Under the pieces are notes generated by a model that worked only from the letters and a program-made list of their open reading frames with translations, did no database searches and was not told the DNA's origin. A program made the position numbers and the translations under genes. From Candidatus Bipolaricaulota bacterium (lineage in GTDB: Bacteria > Bipolaricaulota > Bipolaricaulia > Bipolaricaulales > Bipolaricaulaceae), in NCBI GenBank assembly GCA_938083225.1, contig CALKCH010000016.1, forward strand, positions 1 to 55,351: a stretch of 55,351 nucleotides of DNA, given 5' to 3'. Positions 3,345-53,368 of this stretch are shown piece after piece. Within the stretch, counting starts at the first letter, position 1; each line of letters opens with the position of its first letter.

Positions 3345-4181
3345 TTACCGAAGCACGCCGAGGCGGGAGAGAGCCGCTCCCAGCCGCTCTAGCTCCGGGA
3401 AGTCCAGGGCTTCACCGCGTACTTTGGAATCGAGTCCAAGCTCGGCTAAAAGGGCGTCAGCCTGGGCAGGGGGGAGAATGGAGATGAGCACCCGACGCAA
3501 GGTTTTTCTGCGGTGAGAAAAAGCCAGGGCTAAAGTCTTTTCCCACTGCTCATCGGGCAAGGAAACGCGAGGCTGCGGGAGTTTTCGGAGAGAGACTAAG
3601 GCTCCGCCCACCTCAGGGGGAGGGAAAAACGCGGTTTTGGGGATCTTGCGGAGAAGGTCCACGGCGAAGTAGGTGCGCAGGTGAACGCCGAGACGGCCGG
3701 CCTGCGGCCCCGGCGAAGCTACAAGTTTTTCCCCAACCTCCCACTGCACGGTGAGCACGGCCCTGGCCACGTTCTCCCGCTCCCGGATGAGCTTCAGGAG
3801 CAGCTCGCTTGTGATCCCGTAAGGTAAGTTCCCCACCACCAGCAGGCCTTTGCCCAATCCCCCCAAATCCAGGGTCCGGAAGTCTCCGGCTATCACGTGC
3901 ACGTGGCTGAAGGGTTGGACTTGGGCCTGAAGTATAGGGATGAGGCGGGAATCTACCTCCACGGCCCAAAGCTCCCGTACATGGGGAGCCAGGGCTACAG
4001 TGAGGGTGCCGATGCCGGCACCCACCTCCACCACTTTTTCCTCGGCAGGAAGGATGGCTGCCACAATTCGGGCGAGTACGTTGGCGTCGGCGAGGAAATG
4101 TTGGCCCAAGGATTTGCGTAGTGTAACCCCATACGCAGCCAAGAGGCTGCGAATCACCGAGGGCGAGGTCAATTTCTCCAT
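3345..4181 (-). CDS. rsmA: 16S rRNA (adenine1518/1519-N6)-dimethyltransferase RsmA/KsgA
   Basis: LGQHFL, the SAM-binding motif VVEVGAGIGTLT, and the catalytic motif VVGNLPYGITS. Length is 278 aa. Confidence 0.9.
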   Translation of the reverse strand: MEKLTSPSVIRSLLAAYGVTLRKSLGQHFLADANVLARIVAAILPAEEKVVEVGAGIGTLTVALAPHVRELWAVEVDSRLIPILQAQVQPFSHVHVIAGDFRTLDLGGLGKGLLVVGNLPYGITSELLLKLIRERENVARAVLTVQWEVGEKLVASPGPQAGRLGVHLRTYFAVDLLRKIPKTAFFPPPEVGGALVSLRKLPQPRVSLPDEQWEKTLALAFSHRRKTLRRVLISILPPAQADALLAELGLDSKVRGEALDFPELERLGAALSRLGVLR

Positions 4182-4218: not shown

Positions 4219-4512
4219 TCACCTGTTTTTCTGGGGTTTTAGATCATCGTCCAGAAGGACTCGGCAGCGGGCCTGAACCTGGGCATCGTACGCAGGCTCC
4301 ATGCATTGAAGCTTTTCGAAGGCCAGGCGGGCCCGGGTTTGGGCCGCATTCACGGCCTGCTCCACAGCTGTCGCCAGTTGCGGATAGCCCGCGGCGCGTA
4401 AGCTCTCACTGAGCGCTCGCCAGAAAGCAAGAGGTAGCTCTAACCTCTTCCCGCTCTCTCCCGCCCAGAGCTCCTCGCGACCAGCCTTGAGGACCAACTC
4501 CAACTCGTTCAT
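4219..4512 (-). CDS. hypothetical small protein (97 aa)
   Basis: Open frame with backbone-like high G+C, positioned upstream of rsmA on the same strand. I recognise no motif and see no clear SD sequence before the ATG. Confidence 0.4.
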   Translation of the reverse strand: MNELELVLKAGREELWAGESGKRLELPLAFWRALSESLRAAGYPQLATAVEQAVNAAQTRARLAFEKLQCMEPAYDAQVQARCRVLLDDDLKPQKNR

Positions 4513-4686
4513 GGCAAGGAAAAGCTACCCCGGCGCGTACATAGGCGCAACAGGCTGGGATTTAGCAAGGTTAGCTAGCTGGCCCTGCGGGTGAGTGACG
4601 TCACAGCCAAAACAGCATTTATTCAATTTCAGCACCTTTTCTTGCTTTTAATTCGGTGAGACTTGCCCTCGTCTCTTACCGGTTCC

Positions 4687-5622
4687 TCACCTTACTAGAT
4701 CTAACCCGAAAGATATCCGATGCTGAGATGCGAGGTGAGGATGCATTACCAGCGCGTAGTCAAGTGTAAAGAGACCGAATCTCACCCCGAGACCGAAGCT
4801 TGTCATAAGAGCCCCTTCACCGCGTAGTCCAAATCGGACTGCCAACGCTGAGGCGGGATACCACTCGAGGCCTAACCGCCCCCCCTTACCAGCCGCGAAA
4901 TCCGCTAGCAGGATCCAAGAATCGAGAAGAGTGGCCGAGAGCCCAAACGTAATGGCCAGAGACCAATGTTCCTCATGCCCACTTCTATATTTAGTGGGGA
5001 TCTCCACAACGTTCTCCATGATCATTCCCAGCCCGAAAGCAGTTAGAGGCCCAATTTTAGTTCCCTTGCTCGCAGCTCTATAAAAAAGTGAGAAGTCGAA
5101 GGCCCAACCACTCCCACTACCTGGTTCCAGAGTTCGTACTGTATAGAACTTTGCTTTTATTCCGAACCCAACATCCCGAAGGATGGGAATGCTGTGAAGA
5201 CCTAAATCAGCGAGCGAGACGCCGGCTCCAGCCACCACCGTATAGGTACGGTAAGAGAACGAGCCAGTTACGTTGCCCTGCTCGTCGATCTGGGGAACGT
5301 CTCCAAAGTTAAAGAAATGGAGGCCTAGGCCAAGATGGGGCAAGGTCACAGCTATCTGGCCAGCCAGCCCATACCCAAGCCTCACTTCCCCAGAGGAGAG
5401 AGAGGAGACGCTGGTAAGCCCGGCTAATCCTGCTGGGTTGAAGAAAAGCGCGTTGCTATCGTCTGCAAGACCCACGAATGCTCCGCCCAAAGCCAAAGGT
5501 CGAGCCCCCATGCCCAGGTCCAATACGGCAGCAACGTTGGTGTACGACACCGCAAGGCAAGGAAAAGACAGAGATGAGCCGCCGAGGATCATGATCAACC
5601 ACCAACGTCGTCTCCAAAGCAT
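4687..5622 (-). CDS. PorV/PorQ-like outer-membrane beta-barrel protein
   Basis: A signal-like N-terminus is followed by GMGARPLALGGAFVGLADDSNALFFNPAGLAGL, the opening motif I associate with PorV/PorQ-type barrels. An alternating beta-strand pattern runs throughout. A purine-rich AAGGGGG lies 6 nt before the ATG. The gene starts 11 nt after the stop of the giant gene upstream. It has low G+C like that neighbour. Confidence 0.6.
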   Translation of the reverse strand: MLWRRRWWLIMILGGSSLSFPCLAVSYTNVAAVLDLGMGARPLALGGAFVGLADDSNALFFNPAGLAGLTSVSSLSSGEVRLGYGLAGQIAVTLPHLGLGLHFFNFGDVPQIDEQGNVTGSFSYRTYTVVAGAGVSLADLGLHSIPILRDVGFGIKAKFYTVRTLEPGSGSGWAFDFSLFYRAASKGTKIGPLTAFGLGMIMENVVEIPTKYRSGHEEHWSLAITFGLSATLLDSWILLADFAAGKGGRLGLEWYPASALAVRFGLRGEGALMTSFGLGVRFGLFTLDYALVMHPHLASQHRISFGLDLVR

Positions 5623-5633
5623 TGTCTACCCCC

Positions 5634-8600
5634 TTACCGTTGAATCACCATTTTTCCCTGTCCGATGACCTTGCCGTCGCCAACAAGCACATATATGTAT
5701 GGTCCATTGGCCAGCGGAGTGCCAGTTTGATCCACGGGGCGCCATCGACCAACCGGCGGATAGCGCGTAGCTTTGGGGTCAAGGGATATTTCTGCCACTA
5801 ATCGACCGGTTACGTTGTAGATGAGAAGCTTAGCAGACCTCGTTCCCTCAGGGAGTTGGAACCAGAACACACATCCGTCTTCAGGCACGGGGTTTGGGCC
5901 GTGATTGACCGCAGCCCCGGTCCGAAGGGCTGCGAATATCGCGTGAATCGTATGGTCACTTGTTACGTTGACGAACTTGTAAGTGCCCATACGACCCTTC
6001 ATGACGACCTGGTCAAGCACCGATCTCCCGTCCACGAGTACATCGTGAATCACGTAGCCTTCGTCCGGTGTGATGGTGAACGTTTGATCAGCACCGTGGA
6101 CCACTTTGACCGCTCCCGAAGGGACTATTACCCCACCTTTCCCCGCAGTCGCCGTTATCGTGTGTTGCAGTTCCTCCCCCGTAAACTTGCTGCCGCTCCG
6201 GAGCGTAAGCTCGAACACCCCGTCTCCGTCCTGGTCGACCTCGATTGTGACCCCCCTCTCACCACGAGCAAGAGACTCCCAATCAACCTTATATTGATGG
6301 ATAGCTCCAGCCCTAGTATTGACCTCGCGGCTCTCAAATTGAAGAAAATCATCACCGGTTGCACGAGTTAACACCAAATCGTAGGAACCATCTGAACCCC
6401 CAATAACCACGTATCTGTAGGAAGGATCACGCCCAAAAATGATTACAATTTCATCCAAGTACGCAGAATCAGGAATTTCGTTTCGCACAACACCTTCAAC
6501 CAGTCCAGTAACACGGCCGACCGGATCCCACACTTGAAGTGAAGCGGCGCTCTTGAGCTGAGCGTGAATATACTGACTCAATGTACCAGCAAGAGAAAGA
6601 AGTTCGTCATTTGTCAACGGCTTATAACCACCGGCTTCAAGCGTCTTATCATAGTTCTCCCCATAGTACTCCTTCAGTCTAGGAAGCCACGAGCCCACTT
6701 TAGCCGGATATGTTGGCCCTGTGTTATAGCAGCTGACAGCACCAAGAACGCTGTTAGTCTTATCTAGTCCGTATTGCAAAATCCGAAACGCATCCTTCAC
6801 GTTTGCATAGATGCCTTGCGGAGTGTTCCCGTAGTAATCGTGCTTGTACACCATGTCCGCCACATATGCACCATTGTCGTATGCATGGTAATTTAATAAA
6901 CCGCTTCCCCATCCCTTGTTGCAGCCAGCACACGGGAAGACACCACCATGAATCTGCATGACGCCAACCCCACCACTTTTGAGGTTACCCGCTCGTCCAT
7001 GTTCCTGGTCATAGATACGGTTGTCAAAGCCGTATTGAGCAGCGCCTTCCTGGAGTGCGATGGCCATAATGAGTTCTATTGGAAACTTATTGTCCCTCAG
7101 CTTTTTGAAAGAGTTAGAAGGCTGTCCTTTATGTACACGATCACCGCTACTGTAAAGGGATCGCTCTGCACTCTCGTCAAAGTAGTAATGTAATACCGCG
7201 TTTAGGAAAACTTCACGACGGCGGCTTCGATCTTCTAGGTTCTGAGCTTTGGCAACTAGTTCCCGTTGTTCGATACGCCTCAGTATGTTTTTGTCCACCC
7301 AGCCTGTAAGTTCAGGGGGCCAGGTCGAGTCCCTTACCTCCCACCAGGTCACGCCGTCAGCCGTTCTCATATCATTGTAAGTATCGACGACAAGCATTAC
7401 CCAACCATTAGGGGCAAAAATCATGGCCTGTCTTGGCGATGTGTATTTGTCATAAATCGTTACCCCGGACTCAGTTGAGTGAGCTACCTCCACCCAGAAA
7501 ACTTTTGTAGCTACACGAACAAGCACAAAATTCAAAACGACCGTCTGTCCGGCCTCCACCGTTACCCCAGCCTTTGTCTGTGAAAGGTATCCATCTGCAA
7601 CTGCAGTGATGTTATAGGTGCCGGCCGGGACATTGAACGAAAATTGCCCAGAATCGTCGGTAATCGGACAGTAGGTTAACGGATCAGGTTCCAGCAGAAG
7701 CATCGCCCCACTGACTCCTTTCCCTGTGGAGGCATCAACCACTCGCCCAGTAAGCCGACCTGTCACAGGTGTAGTTCCCCGAAGCTTTACGACATCAAAT
7801 CCCAAGGCCCTTATCCCTGTACCGTCATCTGCAACGTGATTGACGAGCGCGAGAAATCCGCCATCCGCTGTAGGCCCCCCTATTACCACGTTGTATCTGG
7901 CATTCGGCGGATTCCAAGGTTCACAGCGCGTTAGCCATTCCCAAAGAATTGTTCCTTGTGCGTCCGTTTTTATCAGGCATCCAGACCCACATGTACTTAG
8001 CTGGGACTCGACCACCTGCCATACCAACTTTGCGCCGCCAAGAACAAATCCACCATCCTCAGCCTGCATTATGGAAAGAAAAGCATAGCAATACCCTTCA
8101 TGCTGGTTAAAGAAAGATTTTTCCCAAATCACGTTGCCAAGGCTATCCATTCGCAGGAGGAAGGACTCAGTAGCCATTCCCCCTCCATCGCCGAGCCGAT
8201 TAGAGAAAACTGCAGCAATACTCCCACCATCACGCGTCGTCCCCAACGCAGCAGCCCTGATATCACATCTTTTCTCTGGAAAGTACTTTTCCCAAACGAT
8301 CTGTCCCATCGAGTTTATTTTTAACAGATACAACAACTCCCGCCCTTCAGAATGAGTTTTCGCAGCAATGATAAACCCTCCGTCTTTAGCTCTTCGAGCA
8401 GAAAGTGCTTCGGCTACACCTAATCCCGAAAAGGCTCTTTGCCAAATCACCGTTCCCTGCGCATCTGTACCGACTACGAAGATGTTAGAAGAGAAGGGCG
8501 CGCCATACGTCCGAGAATTTCCAATAAGAACGAAGCCACCTCCTGGTCTTTCATCAACATAGATCGGATGATCCTCTTCACTCGTGGAAACGTCAATAAT

Positions 8601-8993
8601 ACGCTGCCACTCTTGGTTACCGCGTTCATCGAGCTTAAGCAAGAAAGCGGATCTTGGTTTCTCAGGAGGGCTTGGAGCGACACCTGTGAGTACGCAGCCG
8701 TCATCAGAGGTGAGGCCGATATACTCTCCCCCTTGATTTGCAAAGGTCCTCTCCCATAGCGTATTCCCGTCTGGGCCGATGGCTAGCAAAAACATCCCCT
8801 GTGCTCGGTTACCTACAATCCGATATGACCCATCTTTCATTTGCTGGTATGACGCAATCAAAGCCGGCTCAGAAAAAACCCTTTGCCACTCTACAGAAGG
8901 AGGCTGCTCCGAAGCAAGGCCACCGGCCGAGGCAATGGCGAACAATAACCCTACAGCTGCCCTTCGAACTTTAGATAGGAAAACTTGGGACAT
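5634..8993 (-). CDS. 1119-aa secreted multidomain protein: beta-propeller repeats, CarboxypepD_reg-like domain, SH3-like plus SLT/lysozyme-like domain, InlB B-repeat-like domain, T9SS/FlgD-Ig-type C-terminal domain
   Basis: I place the start at ATG 8993, because AAGGAGGG lies 8 nt upstream and the track's GTG 9002 falls inside that SD. The signal peptide is MSQVFLSKVRRAAVGLLFAIASAGG. About 7 repeats follow of the form DGGF..(x)..LLK.D..G...W. Next comes TGRLTGRVVDASTGKGVSGA...YNITAVADGY. Then ELIMAIALQEGAAQ...GVGVMQI, which fits an SLT catalytic Glu plus the GLMQ-like motif. Then TITATAGKGGVIVPSGAVKVVHGADQTFTITPDEGYVIHDVLVDG. The C-terminus is GPNPVPEDGCVFWFQLPEGTRSAKLLIYNVTGRLVAEI...GPYIYVLV...KMVIQR. 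Confidence 0.85.
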   Translation of the reverse strand: MSQVFLSKVRRAAVGLLFAIASAGGLASEQPPSVEWQRVFSEPALIASYQQMKDGSYRIVGNRAQGMFLLAIGPDGNTLWERTFANQGGEYIGLTSDDGCVLTGVAPSPPEKPRSAFLLKLDERGNQEWQRIIDVSTSEEDHPIYVDERPGGGFVLIGNSRTYGAPFSSNIFVVGTDAQGTVIWQRAFSGLGVAEALSARRAKDGGFIIAAKTHSEGRELLYLLKINSMGQIVWEKYFPEKRCDIRAAALGTTRDGGSIAAVFSNRLGDGGGMATESFLLRMDSLGNVIWEKSFFNQHEGYCYAFLSIMQAEDGGFVLGGAKLVWQVVESQLSTCGSGCLIKTDAQGTILWEWLTRCEPWNPPNARYNVVIGGPTADGGFLALVNHVADDGTGIRALGFDVVKLRGTTPVTGRLTGRVVDASTGKGVSGAMLLLEPDPLTYCPITDDSGQFSFNVPAGTYNITAVADGYLSQTKAGVTVEAGQTVVLNFVLVRVATKVFWVEVAHSTESGVTIYDKYTSPRQAMIFAPNGWVMLVVDTYNDMRTADGVTWWEVRDSTWPPELTGWVDKNILRRIEQRELVAKAQNLEDRSRRREVFLNAVLHYYFDESAERSLYSSGDRVHKGQPSNSFKKLRDNKFPIELIMAIALQEGAAQYGFDNRIYDQEHGRAGNLKSGGVGVMQIHGGVFPCAGCNKGWGSGLLNYHAYDNGAYVADMVYKHDYYGNTPQGIYANVKDAFRILQYGLDKTNSVLGAVSCYNTGPTYPAKVGSWLPRLKEYYGENYDKTLEAGGYKPLTNDELLSLAGTLSQYIHAQLKSAASLQVWDPVGRVTGLVEGVVRNEIPDSAYLDEIVIIFGRDPSYRYVVIGGSDGSYDLVLTRATGDDFLQFESREVNTRAGAIHQYKVDWESLARGERGVTIEVDQDGDGVFELTLRSGSKFTGEELQHTITATAGKGGVIVPSGAVKVVHGADQTFTITPDEGYVIHDVLVDGRSVLDQVVMKGRMGTYKFVNVTSDHTIHAIFAALRTGAAVNHGPNPVPEDGCVFWFQLPEGTRSAKLLIYNVTGRLVAEISLDPKATRYPPVGRWRPVDQTGTPLANGPYIYVLVGDGKVIGQGKMVIQR

Positions 8994-9350
8994 GTAGATC
9001 ACCCTCCTTTGCGACCAGGGCCGACGTGTGCCGCAATGTGATCAACGAGAGCGCTGACAATACTGCAAGAGCCTAGCACCAACTTGGAACCCGAAGATTT
9101 CTATCCTAGATACGTCAACCGTCTCTTCGGACTCCAGAGGCTCGAACGGAGATATGCCAAGCACCAGCCCGCTCCTTCTTTTGACCTTATACAATATATC
9201 TTTTACTCCTTGCTGTCAAGTTTTGTATGGCATGCCTACCAGAACACAAGGGCCTTTGTCTCACTTATGACAGAGCCAAAAGCTCTTTTCGGCCGAGTTA
9301 AATAACCAACTCAAAAAACACTTATGGCAAAGAAAACCTGGCCAAGGATA

Positions 9351-9378
9351 TGTACAAGCGCCATGAGCCTGGTATAAT
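9351..9378 (+). promoter_or_regulatory. sigma-70-type promoter with extended -10 for the riboswitch-thiamine operon
   Basis: TGTACA (9351-9356), a 16-nt spacer, then TGgTATAAT (-10 hexamer at 9373-9378), located about 10 nt upstream of the riboswitch P1 stem. Confidence 0.5.
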
Positions 9379-9384
9379 GGGTGT

Positions 9385-9550
9385 TGAGGTAACCGGGGGA
9401 GCTCCGAGAGGGGCTGAGAGGAGGTAAAAAGCCTCGACCCCTTGAACCTGATCCGGGTAATGCCGGCGGAGGGAAGGTTACCGCGCTGGCCCCGCTCAGG
9501 TAGGGGCAAACGCTAAGCCCCCTCCCTTGGTTGCCGCCAAGGAGGGGTTT
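9385..9550 (+). promoter_or_regulatory. TPP (THI-box) riboswitch with SD-sequestering expression platform
   Basis: P1 pairs GGTAACC (9388-9394) with GGTTACC (9476-9482). The core is GGGGCTGAGAGG...CCCTTGAACCTGATCCGGGTAATGCCGGCGGAGGGAAG, which matches the THI-element consensus (CUGAGA ... ACCUGAUCCGGGUAAUGCCGGCG.AGGGA). Downstream, CCCCTCCCTTGG (about 9519-9530) can pair with CCAAGGAGGGG (9537-9547), the SD of the first gene. Confidence 0.9.
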
Positions 9551-9554
9551 TCTC

Positions 9555-10184
9555 GTGCCGCGCACGGTGTTGATCCTGGCAGGCGGCGTGGCCTCCCCTG
9601 AGGAGGCTCGCGAGGCTGCTTGTGCCGCGGATTTCGTTCTCGCCGTTGATGGCGGATTCGACCTGGCCCAGAAGGCTGGGTTGACCGTGGACCTCCTCTT
9701 GGGCGACCTGGATTCCCTTTCTTCCCCTCTTCCTCCCACCCTTTCTGTGCGGCGGGTGCCCAGGGAAAAAGACGCCACCGACCTCGAGCTCGCGTTGGAT
9801 CACGCGGTCTCTTTGGGTCCGGAAAAGATCTTGGTCGTGGGAGCTTTTGGTGCCCGCCTCGATCACACCCTGGCCAACGCCAACCTCCTGGAGAAGTATG
9901 ACCTCCCGGTCGTGCTCTTCCACGACCGGGCCCGCGTGTACCTCGTGGTGGACCAGGTGGAGCTCGCAGGTGAACCTGGAGATCTCGTGTCTCTCCTCCC
10001 CCTGACCGCGGAGGTGCGGGGCGTCACCACCTGGGGCCTGCGCTATGCCCTCACCGACGGCGTCCTCCTGCGGGCCTCTACCCGGGGCGTGTCCAACGAA
10101 GTGGTGGCCACGCCGTTCGGCGTCAGCCTGCGCGAGGGAAAGCTCCTCCTCATCCATATGCCCAAAGGAGGTGGGCCATCATGA
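9555..10184 (+). CDS. thiN: thiamine pyrophosphokinase (thiamine diphosphokinase)
   Basis: GTG 9555 lies 7 nt after AAGGAGGGG, and the track start at 9531 would lie in the riboswitch platform. Motifs: ILAGG, AVDGG, GDLDS, KDATD, GAFGARLDH, GLRYAL. Confidence 0.85.
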   Translation: MPRTVLILAGGVASPEEAREAACAADFVLAVDGGFDLAQKAGLTVDLLLGDLDSLSSPLPPTLSVRRVPREKDATDLELALDHAVSLGPEKILVVGAFGARLDHTLANANLLEKYDLPVVLFHDRARVYLVVDQVELAGEPGDLVSLLPLTAEVRGVTTWGLRYALTDGVLLRASTRGVSNEVVATPFGVSLREGKLLLIHMPKGGGPS

Positions 10185-26049: not shown

Positions 26050-27374
26050 GCCACCGCCCTCTCAAAGCTCATCTCCAAAAGGCGGCGCAGCTCCACCGCG
26101 TACTCCAAGGGGATTTCCTTGAGAATAGGGGAGACGAAGCCGTTCACGATGAGGCTTAGGGCCTGGGACTCGTCGAGACCACGGGACATGAGGTAGAAGA
26201 GATGCTCTTGGGAGACGCGGCCCACGGTAGCCTCGTGGCCCAGCTCTACTTCGTCGTTTTCGGCGTTGAGAACAGGGATGGTCTCGGTGCGCGCCTCCGG
26301 GGAAAGGAGAAGGGTGGAGCACTCCACGTGCGCTTTCGCGCCCCGCGCTTCAGGAGCCACATGCACGGTGCCCCGAAACACGCTTTTGGCCCTTCCCTGC
26401 ACCACGGACCGGGACACAAGCCGCGAGGTGGTCTCCGGCGCCCGATGGATGGCCCGGGCCCCAGTGTCCAGCCACATCCCCTCTTGGGCGAAGGTGAACG
26501 AGAGGTTTTCGGTGCTCGCACCTTTTCCCAAGAGCACGGTGGTGGGGTAGAGCATGGTGACCCTACTGCCCAAGGATCCCGAGACCCAGTCCACGCGGGC
26601 TCCGGCGTAAGCCCAGGCCCGCTTGTTGTTGAGGTTGTACACGTTTTTGGCCCAATTCTGGATGGTGGTGAACCGCACCCGAGCCTCTTCCTTGGCATAG
26701 ATCTCCACCATGCCGGAATGGAGGCTCATCTGGCTGTAGCGCGGCGCGGAGCAGCCCTCAATGTAGTGCACGGAGCTTCCCGCTTCGGCGATGATGAGGG
26801 TGTGCTCGAACTGTCCCACCCCCTCCGTCTGCATGCGGTAATAGGCCTGAAGGGGAATTTCTACCTCCACCCCCTCCGGAATCCACACGAACGTCCCTCC
26901 GCTCCACACCGCGCCGTGCAGGGCGGCGAATTTATTGTCCTCCGGAGGGATGATCTTCATGAAGTACTCTTGCACCCAGGGGAATTCCCGCACAGCTTGC
27001 TCCATGCTCGTGAAGATCACGCCTTTGGCCCGCAGGTTAGCTAAAAGGGAACGGTACACCTCCTCAGAGTCCACCTGGGCGCCGAGGCCCGCCAAAACCT
27101 TCTGCTCGGCCTCGGGGAGTCCCAACGCTTGAAAGGTGCGCCGGATCTCCTCGGGCAGGTCCTCCCAGCGCCGCACGGGCTCCACCGGTCGGGCGTAATA
27201 GGTGAGGTCCCCCAGGTCCAACTCCGAAAGGTCCGGACCGAACCTGGGCATGGGGAGTTTTTCGAAGATCTCCAAGCACCTGAGCCTGTGGGCGCGCATC
27301 CACGCCGGCTCGTTCTTTTCCCAGGAGAGCTCTTCCACGAAATCCCTGGACAGTCGTGCCGCTGACACCCTCAT
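26046..27374 (-). CDS. sufB: Fe-S cluster assembly protein SufB
   Basis: ...HTLIIAEAGSSVHYIEGCSAP... followed by the beta-helix C-terminal half. It sits between sufC and sufS with 4-nt overlaps. Confidence 0.85.
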   Translation of the reverse strand: MRVSAARLSRDFVEELSWEKNEPAWMRAHRLRCLEIFEKLPMPRFGPDLSELDLGDLTYYARPVEPVRRWEDLPEEIRRTFQALGLPEAEQKVLAGLGAQVDSEEVYRSLLANLRAKGVIFTSMEQAVREFPWVQEYFMKIIPPEDNKFAALHGAVWSGGTFVWIPEGVEVEIPLQAYYRMQTEGVGQFEHTLIIAEAGSSVHYIEGCSAPRYSQMSLHSGMVEIYAKEEARVRFTTIQNWAKNVYNLNNKRAWAYAGARVDWVSGSLGSRVTMLYPTTVLLGKGASTENLSFTFAQEGMWLDTGARAIHRAPETTSRLVSRSVVQGRAKSVFRGTVHVAPEARGAKAHVECSTLLLSPEARTETIPVLNAENDEVELGHEATVGRVSQEHLFYLMSRGLDESQALSLIVNGFVSPILKEIPLEYAVELRRLLEMSFERAVA

Positions 27375-28093
27375 TTTCGGACCACCTCGAATCCCAGTTC
27401 CCCGATTTTCCAGGCCAGCTCTGAGCCACCCTGCTCCACGATTTTTCCTTGCCAGAGCACGAAGACCCGCGCGGGCGGTACATGCGTGAACACACGGGGA
27501 TAGTGGGTGATGACGAGGACCGCCGTGCCCGTCTCGGCCATTTCGGCGATGACCTCAGCGATGAGGCGCAGGGCGTCCACGTCCACCCCGGAATCCGGCT
27601 CATCCAACAGGGCCACTTTGGGCCGCAGCATGTAAAGCTGCATGAGTTCAGCCCGTTTTTTCTCGCCTCCAGAAAAGCCCAGATTCAGCTCGCGGTCGCG
27701 GAACTCCTCCATGTTCAGCCGCGTCAGGGCCTGAGGGAAGGCTTTTTGAAAGTCACAGAATTTTTGGCCGCGAACGCTGCAAGCCAACCGCAGGAACTCC
27801 CGCAACCTCACCCCCTCCACCTCGGGCGGGTATTGAAACGCCAACAACAGCCCGGCTCTGGCGCGTTCATGGGGAGGCGAACCCAGGAGGTCCTGGCCAT
27901 CCAAGAAAACCTGGCCCCGGGTCACCTCGTACGCCGGATGCCCGGCCAAAGCCAAGGCCAGTGTGCTTTTTCCCGAACCGTTGGGACCCATGAGAGCATG
28001 GACCTGCCCGGGCTCAAGCTCCAGGTCCACCCCCTGGAGCACGGGCTTCCCGGCCACACGCACGTGCAAATCTCGCACTGTCAGGATGGGCAT
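27371..28093 (-). CDS. sufC: Fe-S cluster assembly ATPase SufC
   Basis: Walker A GPNGSGKSTL, GFSGGEKKRAE, LLDEPDSGVD, ITHY. Confidence 0.9.
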   Translation of the reverse strand: MPILTVRDLHVRVAGKPVLQGVDLELEPGQVHALMGPNGSGKSTLALALAGHPAYEVTRGQVFLDGQDLLGSPPHERARAGLLLAFQYPPEVEGVRLREFLRLACSVRGQKFCDFQKAFPQALTRLNMEEFRDRELNLGFSGGEKKRAELMQLYMLRPKVALLDEPDSGVDVDALRLIAEVIAEMAETGTAVLVITHYPRVFTHVPPARVFVLWQGKIVEQGGSELAWKIGELGFEVVRK

Positions 28094-28148
28094 GACCCAA
28101 AATCTTACCTAAAGGTCCGATTCAGTGCAACGTGCTATACTCACGGGT

Positions 28149-29552
28149 ATGGAGCCTGTCATCGGCTTGGAGATCCATGTGCAGCTCAAGACGCGCACCA
28201 AACTCTTCTGCTCTTGCTCTGCGGAGTACTTCGCCGCGCCGCCCAACACCCTCACCTGCCCGGTCTGCTTGGGTTTACCCGGTGCCCTGCCTGTCCTGAA
28301 CAAAGAGGCCGTAGAGCTGGCCCTGCGCGTAGCACTGGCTCTGAATGCTCAGGTGCAGGAAGCCTCCCAATTCGACCGCAAGAACTACTTCTACCCCGAC
28401 CTCCCCAAGGGATACCAGATCACCCAGCGCCAGGTCCCCCTCGCTACGGGGGGAAGCTTCGCGTTCAAGGTGGAGGGAGAGACCAGAACCGTGCGCATTC
28501 GGGAGCTGCACCTGGAGGAAGACGCGGGAAAACTCGTGCACACCGAATCCCGCACCCTGGTGGATTTCAACCGCTGTGGGGCCCCTTTGGTGGAGATTGT
28601 GACCGAGCCGGAAATTCATTCTCCGCGAGAAGCCCGGGAATTTTTGCGAGCCCTGCGCATCTTGCTCCGCCATCTTCGCGTGTCTACGGTGGACATGGAA
28701 AAAGGGGAGCTCCGGTGTGACGCCAACGCGTCCTTGGCTGTGGCTGGGCGGTTGGGAACGAAAACGGAGATCAAAAACTTAAACTCCTTCCGGGCCGTGG
28801 AACATGCTTTGGCTGCAGTCCTGGAATACCAGCGAGAAAAACTTGCCAGCGGAGCAAAAGTGGAGCAGGTGACCTTTGGCTGGGACGAGGGGAAAAACGA
28901 ACTTATTCTTCAGCGCACCAAAGAAGAGGCCCACGACTACCGGTATTTCCCAGACCCCGATCTCGTGCCCCTTGTGGTATCCCCAGAATGGCTGGGGGAG
29001 GTGCGGGCAAAGATGCCGGAGCTCCCTTGGGAGCGGGCGGCCCGCTGGGCTAAGGAATACGGGGTTCCGGAGCGCGAAGCCGAGGCTCTGTTGGCCGAGC
29101 CCGTCCGTGCCGATTTCTTCGAGGAAGTGGCGCGACAGGTTCCCAACCCCCGCGCGGCTGTGGGCTGGGTTCTCTCCGAGCTTTGGCCCTACTGGACCGA
29201 CGAGGAGCCGCCTATTTCCGCTCAGGATTTGGCCCTGATCATCCGCAAAGTGGAAGAGGGAGTTTGCCCACGCCTAAAAGCCAAGAAGATTCTGGAGCAA
29301 GTGGTCACCGGCCGAGGGTCGCTCAGCGCCCTTATCCAGGAGGTGGAGGGCGAAGTGCTGCGGGATGAGCGGGAACTGCAGGCCTTGGTGGCGGAGGTGA
29401 TCGCAGCCCATCCGCAAGCGGTGGCAGACTTTCGGGCCGGTAAAACTCAAGCGCTAGGCTTTCTGGTGGGCCAGGCGATGAAGAAAGCCCAAGGAAAGGC
29501 CGACCCCAAGCGTCTGGCCCAGATCCTCCAGGCCCTGCTCAGCGGAGGATGA
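28149..29552 (+). CDS. gatB: Asp-tRNA(Asn)/Glu-tRNA(Gln) amidotransferase subunit B
   Basis: MEPVIGLEIHVQLKTRTKLFCSC..., DRKNYFYPDLPKGYQITQ, and a C-terminal GatB/YqeY domain. An alternative GTG start at 28125 is possible. Confidence 0.9.
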   Translation: MEPVIGLEIHVQLKTRTKLFCSCSAEYFAAPPNTLTCPVCLGLPGALPVLNKEAVELALRVALALNAQVQEASQFDRKNYFYPDLPKGYQITQRQVPLATGGSFAFKVEGETRTVRIRELHLEEDAGKLVHTESRTLVDFNRCGAPLVEIVTEPEIHSPREAREFLRALRILLRHLRVSTVDMEKGELRCDANASLAVAGRLGTKTEIKNLNSFRAVEHALAAVLEYQREKLASGAKVEQVTFGWDEGKNELILQRTKEEAHDYRYFPDPDLVPLVVSPEWLGEVRAKMPELPWERAARWAKEYGVPEREAEALLAEPVRADFFEEVARQVPNPRAAVGWVLSELWPYWTDEEPPISAQDLALIIRKVEEGVCPRLKAKKILEQVVTGRGSLSALIQEVEGEVLRDERELQALVAEVIAAHPQAVADFRAGKTQALGFLVGQAMKKAQGKADPKRLAQILQALLSGG

Positions 29553-32804: not shown

Positions 32805-33376
32805 GGAGAGAAGAAATGTTCGCGGCAGCGTGGTTCGTAAGTTTCCAATCCCCCCACGAGGACTTCGGGGCCGTCCGTTACAGGACGTCCGGAGAGGAGG
32901 CGCTGCGAGCGCGTGGCAGGGTTCCCGCACACGGTGCATACGGCGGAAAGTTTTAAGACCTCATCGGCCAAGGCCAAAAGAACGGGCATGGGCCCGAAGG
33001 GCTCGCCGCGAAAATTCAGATCTAATCCTGCTACAATCACCCGTTTCCCTCGGTGGACCAAAATTTCACAGAGTTCCGGAAAGTCCGGACCGAAGAAATT
33101 GGCCTCGTCAAAAGCCACCACTTCCGCGCTTTCCAGGGCTTCCTTAGGCACATACGTTGCGAAAGTGGCTGCGTGAACGTTAACGGGAAGGATGAAGCAC
33201 GGAAAGCTTCGGCCGTTGTGGGTTACCACGCGATCGTGGGCGTAGCGCGTGTCAAGTTCCGGTTTACAAAGGATCACCGTTTTCCGGGCGATTCTGGCGC
33301 GCTCCAACCGGCGCAAAAGCTCCTCGGTTTTGCCAGCAAACATAGGACCAGTGATAACTTCCAGACGTCCCGGCAT
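32801..33376 (-). CDS. tdk: thymidine kinase
   Basis: MPGRLEVITGPMFAGKTEELLRR, FDEANFF, and the C-terminal zinc ribbon CTVCGNPA...YEPRCREH. Confidence 0.9.
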   Translation of the reverse strand: MPGRLEVITGPMFAGKTEELLRRLERARIARKTVILCKPELDTRYAHDRVVTHNGRSFPCFILPVNVHAATFATYVPKEALESAEVVAFDEANFFGPDFPELCEILVHRGKRVIVAGLDLNFRGEPFGPMPVLLALADEVLKLSAVCTVCGNPATRSQRLLSGRPVTDGPEVLVGGLETYEPRCREHFFSP

Positions 33377-33466
33377 GATCCCGAGGATTGTAGCCAGGCT
33401 AAACACTCAGGCCACTTCGGCAAAGTCTTGTTGAGCTGAGCTCTTTGGAGTAAAGTCCAATGCCCG

Positions 33467-34318
33467 ATGTTCAGCGCTCAGGGGACGGCGATCTATCGCG
33501 TACGCCGCGGGCTCTGGTCGGTTTTGATTTACTCCCTGCTCCTTTTCACCGCGGTGATCATGGCCTTGCCGTTCTTCTGGATGATCACCACCTCCCTCAA
33601 GGATGTCTACCAAGCCCTGCGCCTACCGCCCGTGTGGATCCCAAATCCCCTGCACTGGGAGAACTATGTTTCTGCCTGGAACGCTGCGCCATTCGGTCGC
33701 TACTTCTTCAACTCTTTCCTGATTGCCATCACTACCACCGTCGGTGAAGTGATCACCACCATTTTCGCGGCTTACGCCTTTGCCAAAATGAATTTCTTCG
33801 GGAAAAGCGTGCTGTTTAATCTCTTTTTGGGCACGCTGATGATCCCCGGGCAGATGCTCCTTGTGCCCAGCTTTGTGCTCATCAATCGCCTCGGCGGGTA
33901 TAATACGTATTGGGCATTGATCATCCCCTGGACCGTGTCTGTATTTGGCGTCTTCCTTTTGCGCCAGTTCTTCCGCACAATTCCCGATGAATTCTGGGAT
34001 TCCGCACGGTTGGACGGGTGTTCCCGCATACGCTACGTCTTGCAAATCGCCGTTCCCCAGGCCCGTCCGGGCATTGCCACTGTGGCCCTCTTCAAATTCG
34101 TGGGCTCATGGAACGCGTTCCTGTGGGTCATCATCATGACCGACAGAGTTCAACTACGCACAGTGCCTGTAGGCCTGCGGTACTTCATGCAGGAGTTCAA
34201 CCAGGACTATCATCTGCTTATGGCTGCCGCTACGATGGCCATCGTGCCCATCTTGATCCTCTTCTTCTTCGCCCAAAAACAGTTTATCCAAGGCGTTGCC
34301 CGCACGGGGTTGCGCTGA
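33467..34318 (+). CDS. CUT1-family ABC permease (MalG-like)
   Basis: Six TM segments and the EAA loop DSARLDGCSRIRYVLQIAVPQARPG. Confidence 0.8.
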   Translation: MFSAQGTAIYRVRRGLWSVLIYSLLLFTAVIMALPFFWMITTSLKDVYQALRLPPVWIPNPLHWENYVSAWNAAPFGRYFFNSFLIAITTTVGEVITTIFAAYAFAKMNFFGKSVLFNLFLGTLMIPGQMLLVPSFVLINRLGGYNTYWALIIPWTVSVFGVFLLRQFFRTIPDEFWDSARLDGCSRIRYVLQIAVPQARPGIATVALFKFVGSWNAFLWVIIMTDRVQLRTVPVGLRYFMQEFNQDYHLLMAAATMAIVPILILFFFAQKQFIQGVARTGLR

Positions 34319-34377
34319 GGGGGTGAGAGCAGGGAAAAGAGTGTGTACGGTAGGCCAAAAATAAGGAGGTGGACTCT

Positions 34378-35574
34378 ATGCGGCGGATGCTTGTGGCGTT
34401 GTTGGTTGTGGTCCTAGGACTTGGGGGCTTCGGCCAGGTGACGATCTCCTTCTGGCACGCCATGTCCGGAGCCCTGGGAGAGGCTCTCACCTCTCTGGTG
34501 CAGAAGTTCCAGGCGGAAAACCCTGACGTTGTGGTGGATCTCGTGTACCAAGGTGGCTACAGCGCCCTCCAGCAAAAGCTGATCGCTGCCGTGGCCGCGG
34601 GCCAGCCGCCCACTTTGGCCCAGCAGTACGAAAACTGGACCACCCAGTGGTTGGACGCTCTTGTTGACCTGGACCTCTTCCTCCCCGAAGAGGTGTTGGC
34701 TGATATCCTTCCCCAATTCGAACAAATTTTCGAGGGTCGCATCATCACTGTACCCTTCAACAAGTCCATCCTGGTTCTCTATTATCGGCCAGACTTGATC
34801 CCCAACCCGCCCAAGACCTGGGAGGAGTTCGAGGAGTTGGTGGCCCAAGTCGGCAAGGATGAGGCAAAAGGAGTGTACGGCACGGCTTATCGGCCCCCGA
34901 ACCCCGAGATCTTCCTCACCTTGCTCCATCAGGCTGGGGGGTCCATCCTCTCTGAAGACTGGACGAAAGTGACCCTCAACGATGCGGCGGGCCTGGAGGC
35001 CGCGGAGTTTGCCGCCCGCACCGCTAAGTACGCCCTTGTTCAGAGCGCCTACATTTCTGATGCCGTCCAGAAAGGCATTACTGTCGCCATGTGGATCGAC
35101 ACTTCCGCCGGGTATACCTACAACATGAACGCGGCCAAGACCGCGGGAGTTCCCTTGAGCGTGGCCCCTGTCCCTTGCTACAAGAATTGCGCCTCCATGA
35201 TCCAGGGCACGAACCTGGGCATCTTCTCTGTGAACCAGACCCGCGCCCAGATCGAAGCTGCCGCTCGGCTCATCGCCTTCCTCCTCCGCGAGGACAACAT
35301 CGTGTACTGGGCCCAGAAGACGGGATACCTTCCCGTAACGAAGACCGCGATCTACGGGAAGCTCTGGCAGGACTACATCGCCCAGCGTCCAGAGCATAAG
35401 GTCATGACGGACCAGCTCCTCGCTGGTGGGTTCGGGCAGCTCCTCCACCCCAAGTACATGGACATCCGTAGTTTGCTCATCACCTACTGGGAGCTCCTCC
35501 TCAAGGGAGAGGGCGCACCTAAGAAGATCCTGGACGCGCTGGCGGCGGAGATCGCGAGCGTCATCGGCCAGTGA
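34378..35574 (+). CDS. CUT1-family extracellular solute-binding protein
   Basis: ATG 34378 lies 11 nt after AAGGAGG. Signal peptide MRRMLVALLVVVLGLGGFG. SBP_bac_1-type sequence (ISFWHAMSG...). Confidence 0.8.
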   Translation: MRRMLVALLVVVLGLGGFGQVTISFWHAMSGALGEALTSLVQKFQAENPDVVVDLVYQGGYSALQQKLIAAVAAGQPPTLAQQYENWTTQWLDALVDLDLFLPEEVLADILPQFEQIFEGRIITVPFNKSILVLYYRPDLIPNPPKTWEEFEELVAQVGKDEAKGVYGTAYRPPNPEIFLTLLHQAGGSILSEDWTKVTLNDAAGLEAAEFAARTAKYALVQSAYISDAVQKGITVAMWIDTSAGYTYNMNAAKTAGVPLSVAPVPCYKNCASMIQGTNLGIFSVNQTRAQIEAAARLIAFLLREDNIVYWAQKTGYLPVTKTAIYGKLWQDYIAQRPEHKVMTDQLLAGGFGQLLHPKYMDIRSLLITYWELLLKGEGAPKKILDALAAEIASVIGQ

Positions 35575-53004: not shown

Positions 53005-53095
53005 GGAGGGGTGGGCGAGCGGCCGAAACCACCTGCCTGGAGAGCAGGTGCACCCCAAAAGGGTGCCGCGGGTTCAAATCCCGCCCCCTCCGCCA
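53005..53095 (+). tRNA. tRNA-Ser (anticodon GGA)
   Basis: Acceptor stem GGAGGGG/CCCCTCC, anticodon arm CCTGC-CTGGAGA-GCAGG, long variable arm (TGCACCCCAAAAGGGTGCC), T arm GCGGG-TTCAAAT-CCCGC, discriminator G, and CCA encoded. Confidence 0.95.
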
Positions 53096-53368
53096 GGCCC
53101 GTGCAGGGTGGGGGGGTAGCGGTCCCCTGCATCCAAAACCCGCTACATGTGGAGCCCATGGGCTCCCCGAGAGGCGGGGTGGCGGAAGCGGCCTGGGAGA
53201 GGCGGCGATGACGGCTGAGCCCCCTGCGACGCAGGCCGGTGAACCCCGCCAGGCCCGGAAGGGAGCAACGGTAAGCCGCCCCCTGCGGGTGATAGGGGAG
53301 CGCTTGGTCCGAGCTGGCGGCCCGGGTGCGCCCGGAGGCCTCAGCCCCGACGGGAGTCCGCACGGGCC
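53096..53368 (+). ncRNA. ffs: signal recognition particle RNA, large (Alu-domain-containing, Bacillus-type)
   Basis: The terminal helix pairs GGCCCGTGC (5') with GCACGGGCC (3'). The Alu-domain-like segment GGTAGCGGTCCCCTG resembles B. subtilis scRNA GGUAGCGGUGCCCUG. The domain IV motif CCGCCAGGCCCGGAAGGGAGCAACGGTAAG is present. TTTGTTTTT follows the 3' helix. Confidence 0.85.

Follow-up and report, generated by a model that had tools for sequence, protein, structure and literature searches.

The 55,351-nucleotide contig CALKCH010000016.1 of a Candidatus Bipolaricaulota bacterium (hereafter the window, by which we mean the whole stretch of DNA analyzed) carries, at positions 4530-9350, a low-G+C block of two genes, which an earlier note made from the sequence alone had read as a gene for a giant secreted protein (here, the cargo) together with a PorV-like gene. 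How did these genes come to lie in the short spacer between the thiamine gene thiN and orf97, a small open reading frame (ORF) upstream of rsmA, and what might they do together? The block is very probably a horizontally acquired mosaic cassette, and the explanation that best accounts for the observations as a whole (an acquired, mosaic two-gene cassette at a hotspot spacer, with a predicted partnership between a C-terminal tag on the cargo and the PorV-like barrel) is, in our judgment, probably right. The island and its transfer are themselves ordinary, whereas cassettes of this type had not been described from the phylum, and the content of the island and its exchange between species are more useful results than the island itself.

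Composition and alternative contents of the thiN-orf97 spacer

The G+C content of 4530-9350 is 0.512, compared with 0.606 in the remaining 50.5 kb of the window. In 1-kb intervals, it averages 0.513 (0.479-0.560) inside the block and 0.605 outside (standard deviation 0.025, minimum 0.540), and a two-boundary maximum-likelihood fit on G+C places the change points at ~4600 and ~9385. BLASTN homology to related loci ends at window positions 4515-4538 and restarts at 9333-9388, so the boundaries proposed in the earlier note are correct to ~50 bp; its hand counts of G+C in single 60-nt lines (29, 24, and 22 in the island, 42 and 44 in the backbone) are exact, and the low-G+C block lies where it had been placed. 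G+C at third codon positions (GC3) is 0.493 in the cargo gene and 0.542 in the PorV-like gene, against 0.692±0.044 (minimum 0.61) in 44 background ORFs, corresponding to z-scores of -4.5 and -3.4, respectively; G+C at second codon positions (GC2) is normal in both genes, and the compositional shift sits in synonymous sites. When the synonymous choices of each gene are scored by likelihood against the pooled usage of the other genes, the codon-usage deviance reaches z = -17.3 for the cargo gene and -7.9 for the PorV-like gene, with all other ORFs falling between -4.3 and +4.2. The tetranucleotide L1 distance is 0.39 for the block and 0.12-0.18 for other intervals, the G+C-normalized tetranucleotide correlation is 0.69 versus 0.85-0.92 elsewhere, and the block is the sole outlier in codon usage and tetranucleotides within the 55-kb window. 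The sliding-window G+C, GC3, tetranucleotide, and codon-usage analyses that had been suggested all show the block deviating, and the compositional anomaly is real and far beyond chance. The block holds exactly the two genes and an upstream leader, as the earlier note described, the leader being 320 nt long and followed at the other end by a 174-nt trailer. By composition and by synteny with six related loci (L001, L002, L003, L005, L006, and L014), the insert-specific DNA of leader, cargo gene, PorV-like gene, and trailer spans ~4.77 kb (4559..9323, no strand assigned).

The left boundary of the block is orf97 (4219..4512, minus strand), next to rsmA (3345..4181, minus strand), and the right boundary is the thiamine pyrophosphate (TPP) riboswitch of the thiN-thiBPQ operon (9385..9492, plus strand; RF00059, 75 bits), which lies outside the insert. 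Beyond it are thiN, encoding thiamine diphosphokinase (9531..10184, plus strand), and, downstream of thiN, thiB, thiP, and thiQ. In a species-level genome collection, the rsmA loci nearest to that of the window all come from Candidatus Bipolaricaulota/Acetothermia metagenome-assembled genomes (MAGs), at 71-77% amino acid identity. TBLASTN searches with the window proteins showed that thiN and orf97 are divergent neighbors ~200 bp apart in L001, L002, L003, L005, L006, and L014, with only the riboswitch and a ~50-nt promoter spacer in the gap; TBLASTN and BLASTN synteny found neither island gene at this gap in the same six genomes. The comparison of the rsmA-to-thiN interval in relatives that the earlier note had proposed thus reveals an empty site in six related genomes, or a clean empty site in six of the eight informative relatives, the other two (L004 and L173) holding other contents. 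In L004 these are tenA-like, thiD, and thi4 thiamine biosynthesis genes together with a second copy of the riboswitch; this thiamine cluster (L004:6540-9660) is bracketed by two near-identical TPP riboswitch copies, and recombination between them could create or delete it. At least four states of the site have been observed (empty, thiamine genes, and two different cargo cassettes), and the thiN-orf97 spacer therefore behaves as a hotspot. The window's own state, insert and junctions included, recurs in L084, a contig assembled from another sample and 99.75% identical to the window across 15 kb. The two differ by 36 substitutions and one 1-bp indel over that length, with 1.9 differences per kb in the insert and 2.7 per kb outside it, and the insert is thus older than the split of these two strains.

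The other filled site emerged from a search of 1.84 billion representative proteins, in which the best match to the last 95 residues of the cargo is P0241, a 1663-residue protein with RCC1 repeats and a different passenger, whose last ~180 residues are 97-99% identical to the window cargo. Its contig, L173, comes from another species and covers this same site of the chromosome: positions 1-156 align to the start of thiN and the riboswitch with 81.6% identity, and positions 7188-8322 align to orf97-rsmA with 67.6% nucleotide identity (70% protein identity for RsmA and 54% for Orf97). The ~7 kb between these flanks hold the RCC1 cargo gene and a PorV-like gene, as well as fragments of a dinB C-terminus and of a CarboxypepD_reg domain. 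In the debris upstream of the cargo gene (L173:157-1700), the DinB/IMS_C C-terminal fragment is fused in frame to the called ORF, and the CarboxypepD_reg-like fragment lies at 603-758; this gene debris suggests earlier rounds of turnover at the hotspot.

The two cassettes are alike in only part of their length. BLASTN aligns window 6287-4696 to L173 with 91% identity over 1592 nt, and when scored per 100 nt, identity is 92-100% within ~6110-4810, 43-68% upstream, and 29-52% downstream. The resulting ~1.3-kb tract (4810..6110, minus strand), which is ~95% identical to L173 and covers the cargo from residue ~965 to its end and residues 1 to ~270 of the PorV-like protein, reflects recent recombination or transfer between species whose backbones are saturated at synonymous sites. 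Third codon positions of the window and L173 are 0.88-0.93 identical in the tract and 0.45-0.49 identical in rsmA/orf97, a discordance in divergence that is shown by comparing identities in the tract and in rsmA/orf97, not by a tree. The tract coincides with the 'constant' 3' part of the cassette, namely an InlB-like repeat together with the C-terminal domain and the greater part of the PorV-like gene; passenger, leader, and trailer are not the same in the window and in L173. GC3 within the cargo gene jumps from 0.38 (residues 801-900) to 0.65 (residues 901-1000), coinciding with the upstream break point of the tract. These loci document gene flow between Bipolaricaulota species at a single divergent-promoter-spacer hotspot, with four site states and a tract with defined break points.

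Junctions of the insert

Diverged direct copies of the target spacer flank the insert, which corrects the earlier statement that there are no obvious direct repeats. Copy A (9321..9380) comprises the thiN -10 box and the ~50-nt ancestral spacer, ends in a decayed orf97 start (GCCATA), and is collinear with the empty site of the relatives; copy B (4509..4570; profile match 4557-4510) repeats the spacer and runs directly into the intact orf97 start. The copies agree at 42 of 62 positions, and their global alignment score of 10 compares with -8.9±3.9 in 2000 shuffles, none of which reaches 10, and with scores of at most 2 for the regions upstream of 35 other genes. A junction profile derived from the spacer of the relatives together with the first 45 nt of orf97 matches the window twice, at 4557-4469 (51 bits), adjoining orf97, and at 9368-9281 (18.9 bits, E 5e-5), adjoining the riboswitch and thiN -10 box. 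With a spacer-only profile, copy B scores 19.8 bits (E 5.5e-5) and copy A 11.4 bits (E 0.026). Each copy agrees with the relatives' spacers at 26-37 of ~50 positions, and the relatives agree among themselves at 27-38. The repeat emerges clearly only when the relatives' spacer serves as a guide and the delimited copies are aligned globally; strict local alignment of the junction regions does not rise above chance (score 25, compared with a control maximum of 27-33).

The spacer holds the overlapping, divergent promoters of thiN and orf97, and its duplication therefore leaves each neighbor with a promoter. A thiN promoter-like site (TGTACA-16-TATAAT, 9351-9378), identified by its match to the consensus, lies inside copy A. 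The insert carries a promoter-like site of its own (TTGACA-17-TATTGT; 9191..9219, minus strand) ~190 nt upstream of the cargo start, recognized by consensus match only (10 of 12 positions). The island genes are co-oriented with orf97-rsmA, and there is no terminator-like site between the island genes and orf97-rsmA. The 320-nt leader has no Rfam match. We considered whether copy B includes a remnant of a second TPP riboswitch, as in L004, and rejected it; one 22-nt segment matches at 18 of 22 positions, but a scan of 4450-4760 with Rfam is empty even at E 10 and the alignment does not convince. Elsewhere in the window, the spacer between a sufC-like ABC ATPase gene (27371..28093, minus strand) and gatB (28125..29552, plus strand) resembles the thiN-orf97 spacer (TTGCAC...GGTA...TTTTGG.CATG; 12 bits), and this likeness at 28091-28135 probably reflects a shared layout of promoter and ribosome-binding site, not homology.

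Scans of ORFs and with Pfam and NCBIfam identified no integrase or transposase ORF or remnant in the insert, and no terminal inverted repeats are present. There is no tRNA gene near the block, the nearest lying at 38.8 kb, and the absence of an integrase, transposase, or flanking tRNA reported in the earlier note is borne out.

The cargo gene, the PorV-like gene, and their recurrence

The cargo gene (5634..9002, minus strand) is an ORF of 1122 codons from a GTG at 9002, although the likely start is the ATG at 8993, which follows AGGAGG and yields a protein of 1119 residues; the database copy of the cargo (P0001) also has 1119 residues. The N-terminus, MSQVFLSKVRRAAVGLLFAIASAGGLA/SEQ, has what appear by eye to be the n-, h-, and c-regions of a putative Sec signal peptide, and the product is thus predicted to be Sec-exported, in keeping with its initial description as a giant secreted protein. 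Residues ~30-400 resemble an SBBP-like beta-propeller (a weak NF047494 match, with ~110 homologues covering residues 50-350), and residues 417-494 form a CarboxypepD_reg Ig-like domain (7521..7754, minus strand; PF13620, E 7e-17, 62 bits, above the cut-off), the only part of the cargo matched in a sequence search of the PDB. The middle passenger region (residues 497-946; 6165..7514, minus strand) is of uncertain function, with a possible SH3b-like piece and SLT-like motifs (QEG...GVMQI...YNTG). Its match to Pfam SLT (E 0.023) is below the cut-off, its AlphaFold2 model has a pLDDT of 70 with the putative catalytic loop disordered, and a PDB fold search gave no significant match, the best partial ones being to SH3b-like cell-wall-binding domains (E 0.02-0.3). 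With a moderate model and no significant fold match, the SLT/SH3b reading rests on the weak Pfam match and on motifs seen by eye, and the region is possibly peptidoglycan binding or cleaving. Four proteins (P0002, P0003, P0004, and P0007) align to it at 31-64% identity, although a word-index homologue search with this region alone gave no match, an outcome that looks like an effect of the candidate filter and not of biology.

Toward the C-terminus is a divergent InlB B-repeat-like domain (residues 947-992; 6027..6164, minus strand; PF18998, E 7.6e-5, 23.1 bits against a cut-off of 23.6), followed in the last 95 residues by a C-terminal domain (CTD; 5637..5921, minus strand) that resembles the type A sorting tags of type IX secretion systems (T9SS), judged by TIGR04183, FlgD_ig, and an alignment of the tails. 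The CTD scores 19.9 bits with TIGR04183 (cut-off 23; E 5e-4), in an alignment that spans positions 3-72 of the 72-position model, and 20.7 bits with FlgD_ig (cut-off 27); the cargo has no PF18962 match.

The PorV-like gene (4687..5622, minus strand) starts 11 nt after the cargo stop codon and codes for a 311-residue protein with a predicted signal peptide, an N-terminal G-A-R...NPAGL segment, and, in the structural model, a 14-stranded barrel. It matches the NCBIfam PorV/PorQ family model NF033709 with an E of 2.6e-18 and scores 15.2 bits with the PorV equivalog model NF033710, the cut-off of which is 250; PorP/SprF models are absent from its Pfam and NCBIfam matches. A PDB search by sequence gave no match. 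The AlphaFold2 model (47 sequences, pLDDT 86) has 14 beta strands after the conserved NPAGL-containing N-terminal segment, and its best Foldseek matches are PorV chains of the Flavobacterium T9SS translocon, 8gl6_F (E 1.2e-11, TM 0.68) and 6h3i_F (TM 0.65), followed by FadL and TodX. The family match, the 14-stranded model, and PorV as the best PDB match agree with the PorV-like identity given to this gene in the earlier note. At NCBI, some of these proteins from Bipolaricaulota MAGs carry the name 'PorV/PorQ family protein', and their existence is therefore already on record.

In the subfamily of PorV-like proteins with at least 40% identity, an ORF of 400-1756 codons ends 0-64 nt before the PorV-like gene wherever upstream sequence exists, with three exceptions. 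The passengers in these ORFs vary widely, including SBBP/PKD, PKD plus Peptidase_M23, RCC1, LVIVD repeats plus Peptidase_C13, Peptidase_C39-like, and others, and in 11 of 20 module comparisons there is no detectable similarity to the window's passenger. Mean identity to 20 other modules is 79% over the last 30 residues of the cargo, 62% over the last 90, and 49% for the PorV-like protein, and the tag is the most conserved part of the cargo across modules. Among the 1.84 billion representatives, the tag family comprises 282 proteins at E≤1e-3 and 160 at E≤1e-10, nearly all with the match at the extreme C-terminus; public data thus contain ~160-280 sequence clusters of tagged exported proteins. 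In a subset of these (P0317-P0389), only tag query positions 4-79 match, ending ~20 residues before the C-terminus, which looks like a tag variant with a different final strand.

All 38 tags in the collected loci are followed by a PorV-like gene. P0004, which was found through its passenger and not through PorV, also has a PorV-like gene 11 nt downstream. P0007 (L172:3286-8493) shares the middle domain of the cargo (residues 497-946, 34% identity) and ends in a hydrophobic helix or transmembrane anchor and a basic tail, with no CTD and no PorV-like gene after it; the same passenger domain is therefore used with a different anchoring device. P0004 and P0007 were both obtained independently of the PorV-like bait, and both accord with the pairing. 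Three distinct modules in one metagenome have PorV-like proteins that are 80-87% identical, tags that are 92-93% identical, and different passengers, which fits several private cargo-barrel pairs in one population. More distant PorV-like genes (27-32% identity) in L123, L144, L155, L161, and L167 directly follow ORFs of 1200-2500 codons with classical FlgD_ig/T9SS-like CTDs. The contigs concerned have a G+C of ~0.51 to 0.71 and probably belong to other phyla, and the PorV-like ORF is ~800 codons long in L144 and L161; cargo-barrel pairing may extend beyond the Bipolaricaulota.

Several further features of the window lie outside the cassette. The remaining window genes are for ordinary metabolism and housekeeping. 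The left-hand neighbor orf97 has no Pfam or NCBIfam family match and is kept at 54-67% identity directly upstream of rsmA in eight related Bipolaricaulota genomes, with flank copies that are 57-67% identical beside rsmA in L001-L006 and L014. A milder G+C dip (0.54-0.555) at 33000-34500 spans a small ORF without a family match and a BPD_transp_1 permease gene; we rejected it as a second island, since its GC3 is normal (0.63-0.74), as it is in the window's other mildly low stretches, and the dip therefore reflects amino acid composition. A tRNA-Ser(GGA) gene at 53005-53095 (plus strand) is followed by a large bacterial signal recognition particle RNA at 53099-53365 (plus strand, 114 bits).

Origin, predicted function, and comparison with known systems

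Four of the five features by which genomic islets are usually recognized (anomalous composition, absence in relatives, discordant divergence, and flanking repeats) are present at this locus, and the fifth, mobility genes or an adjacent tRNA, is absent. Where might the cassette have come from? At least 187 homologues of the PorV-like protein share 37-75% identity with it, and those that are named and at least 48% identical are from Bipolaricaulota or Bipolaricaulaceae, with the exception of one Deltaproteobacteria MAG (51% identity). The PorV-like protein has no match in plasmid or phage collections other than one irrelevant match of 28% identity in IMG/VR. The nearest relative after L173 is L169, a 1.5-kb contig with a PorV-like gene of 75% amino acid and 74.6% nucleotide identity, a G+C of 0.535, and a GC3 of 0.53-0.55; four others at 57-71% identity (L170, L083, L081, and L090) have a G+C of 0.60-0.62. 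Because of the composition of L169, and because modules occur on contigs with G+C as low as 0.465 (the range being 0.465 to 0.65), the donor is likely another, lower-G+C lineage within the Bipolaricaulota. A DDE_Tnp_1 (IS4/IS5-type) transposase gene lies ~1 kb upstream of the closest full-length cassette homologue (L081:326-990 and L082:272-1057), the sole mobility-gene link in any locus.

The earlier note had offered two readings, acquisition of a compact cassette by an unclear route or an ancient island that had not ameliorated. Acquisition gains support from synteny, composition, the ~95% identical tract shared with a species whose backbone is only ~68% identical, and the flanking spacer repeat. 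An ancient, un-ameliorated island is unlikely because the block is missing in species-level relatives and because synonymous sites in part of it are close to unsaturated relative to another species. The route, which the note called unclear, has yet to be proven, although it now looks like hotspot recombination and not like transposition or tRNA-targeted integration; on balance, we lean toward entry by recombination at the hotspot in the thiN-orf97 spacer over entry through a mobile element that was later lost.

A number of observations weigh against this account. There is no mobility gene, tRNA, or perfect att site, so the mechanism of insertion is a proposed one. The repeat copies are only ~68% identical, and the spacer-only score of copy A is marginal, given that an unrelated promoter region at 28135-28091 obtains 12.1 bits. 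With the L173 tract and the L169 contig set aside, the closest full-length homologues (L081-L083, L090, and L170) are high in G+C. In addition, of 15 other loci with flanks of 2 kb or more, 13 have modules lower in G+C than those flanks by 0.004-0.06, so that part of the window's deviation may be a property of this class of accessory genes, the difference of 0.10 in the window being the largest. The family assignments and the pairing have weak points of their own; the 66.7 bits of the PorV-like protein with NF033709 are below the cut-off of 90, as are those of four other subfamily members (56-83 bits), and the pairing count is biased, because most loci were fetched with the PorV-like protein as bait.

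We considered four other explanations for the block. If the pair were native and ancient, and had been repeatedly lost in relatives, its low G+C could stem from constraints on the genes themselves, for example weak selection on codons in genes for large surface proteins. The family is indeed widespread within the phylum, L173 has a module at the same site in another species, direct repeats could mediate deletions, and modules tend to be slightly lower in G+C than their flanks in those 13 of 15 loci; however, six of the eight informative relatives have a clean empty site, and the deviance of z = -17 is far beyond all else in the window. In the L173 comparison, a different passenger, leader, and trailer combined with a ~95% identical tract, with synonymous sites unsaturated in the tract and saturated in the backbone, is incompatible with vertical descent. 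RsmA is 70% identical between the window and L173 and 71-75% identical between the window and empty-site relatives, which largely shows that the two filled sites are not in sister lineages. We therefore regard a native origin as quite improbable. We also think it improbable that a classical mobile element (an insertion sequence or composite transposon, an integrative element, or a prophage) inserted the cassette and that its mobility genes have since been lost or are elsewhere. Its flanking direct repeats resemble attL and attR, L173 contains pseudogene debris, and in L081 and L082 a transposase gene precedes the homologous module by ~1 kb, yet a 50-60 bp repeat at 68% identity is too long and too diverged for a transposase target duplication. 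Neither transposase nor integrase ORFs or remnants occur in the window insert, terminal inverted repeats and a nearby tRNA are likewise absent, and the PorV-like protein lacks plasmid and phage matches apart from the one at 28% identity in IMG/VR.

An origin in Bacteroidota or another bacterium of the Fibrobacterota-Chlorobiota-Bacteroidota (FCB) group, the block then being a fragment of a genuine T9SS, would agree with a Flavobacterium PorV as the best structural match of the barrel and with the end-to-end alignment of the CTD to the T9SS type A model. Against this, named close homologues (40-75% identity) are nearly all from Bipolaricaulota, the one 51% match being from a Deltaproteobacteria MAG; identity to solved PorV is ~14%, with an empty PDB sequence search; the PorV equivalog model gives only 15 bits against its cut-off of 250; and the CTD variant is a tight family of its own, with 282 representatives. 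This origin is very improbable. Finally, in a metagenome-type assembly with an abrupt change in composition, low-G+C DNA of another organism might have been joined into the contig through an assembly or binning error, a notion to which we give practically no credence. L084, from another sample, has the same junctions and a similar density of single-nucleotide differences inside and outside the block, which excludes an assembly chimera; moreover, both junctions carry native copies of the spacer, and a comparable insert is present at the same site in L173.

Acquisition at the hotspot thus remains the preferred explanation, and it leaves the question of what the acquired pair does. The PorV protein of Bacteroidota binds type A CTDs and carries the cargo away from the SprA translocon. 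We propose that the ~120-kDa cargo, with its beta-propeller, Ig-like domains, and possible peptidoglycan region, would be exported via Sec, and that its type-A-like CTD would then be recognized by the co-encoded 14-stranded PorV/FadL-type barrel. The barrel would target or retain its own cargo, one barrel per cargo, at a toga-like outer membrane that lacks lipopolysaccharide (LPS), and passengers would be swapped by recombination as tag and barrel stay together. The arrangement would be akin to the binding of CTD cargo by PorV and PorP/SprF barrels in Bacteroidota. This recognition model is a prediction, and we would put its chances at about even. Two points weigh against it: both the CTD and the barrel score under the curated family cut-offs, and a 14-stranded barrel alone cannot pass a folded 120-kDa protein. 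The 55-kb window encodes no SprA, PorU, PorZ, or GldKLMN, nor do the sequences lying within 10 kb of the L085 and L088 modules. A bolder version holds that the pair is a self-contained, horizontally mobile cassette for surface display or secretion that operates without the canonical type IX machinery, with tag and private barrel as the unit into which passengers are plugged by recombination; we offer this only tentatively and think it rather unlikely. Were it true, the CTD-PorV interaction would be older and more widespread than T9SS, and the cassettes would point to a minimal ancestral form of CTD-dependent sorting.

Bipolaricaulota are reported to have no LPS genes and have a toga-like outer layer (PMC6092417; bioRxiv 10.1101/2025.11.21.689855), and attachment of cargo to anionic LPS therefore cannot apply. 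A closed Bipolaricaulota genome was reported to have no recognizable surface adhesins (PMC6092417), and the cassettes are candidates for the missing surface proteome. A phylum outside the usual type IX group thus holds a compact family of putatively exported proteins with a near-invariant tag, each beside its own PorV-like barrel, and its two-gene cassettes are a tractable system in which to ask what the CTD and the PorV-type barrel can accomplish without other T9SS components. Searches of the literature combining T9SS or PorV with Bipolaricaulota or Acetothermia found no relevant paper in the literature searched.

How does the cassette compare with known systems? As an island, it shares with integrase-less flexible genomic islands the compositional anomaly, presence or absence at a fixed site, different cargo in each species, and mosaic structure. 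Unlike them, it has a diverged duplicate of the target promoter spacer at its borders, and its high-identity tract is inside the island, in the constant 3' part, not in the flanks. As a two-gene unit of a large exoprotein and an outer-membrane beta-barrel, it recalls two-partner secretion (type Vb, TpsA/TpsB), but Pfam and NCBIfam find no TPS domain or Omp85/POTRA match in the cassette, the predicted signal is C-terminal, and the modeled barrel has 14 strands.

The closest parallels are within T9SS. With type A CTDs and their PorV partners (Porphyromonas gingivalis PorV/LptO and Flavobacterium johnsoniae PorV; PDB 6H3I and 8GL6), the cassette shares a predicted Sec-exported cargo, a ~90-residue C-terminal Ig-like tag with the same motif layout (NP.P...F.F.LP...L.IYN..G.LV...W...G..LANG.Y.Y.L), and a partner that is predicted to be a 14-stranded FadL-family barrel with an N-terminal NPAGL, PorV being its best structural match. 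It differs in its host, a member of the Bipolaricaulota outside the Bacteroidota and FCB group with an LPS-less, toga-like envelope; in having its own barrel for each cargo, whereas in T9SS one PorV serves many cargos; and in that both parts score below the curated cut-offs. With type B CTDs and PorP/SprF (F. johnsoniae sprB-sprF and P. gingivalis PG1035-PorP; PMC9143113), it shares a large putative surface protein paired gene by gene with its own 14-stranded FadL-family barrel. The genes for PorP/SprF-like barrels often lie beside those of their type B CTD cargo, and these barrels bind the cargo and keep it anchored at the cell surface (PMC9143113), the barrel being proposed to collect the cargo and hold it there non-covalently. 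Unlike the type B system, however, the cassette tag resembles type A (CHU_C/PF13585 reaches only E 0.13), the barrel matches PorV/PorQ models and not PorP/SprF, and the host is outside the FCB group. Because the cassette is below thresholds, outside the FCB group, without an LPS anchor, and equipped with its own barrel for each cargo, we do not file it as a T9SS member. Rather, it would work like a CTD/PorV pair, as a variant with the one-to-one pairing that is known only for type B CTD/PorP pairs.

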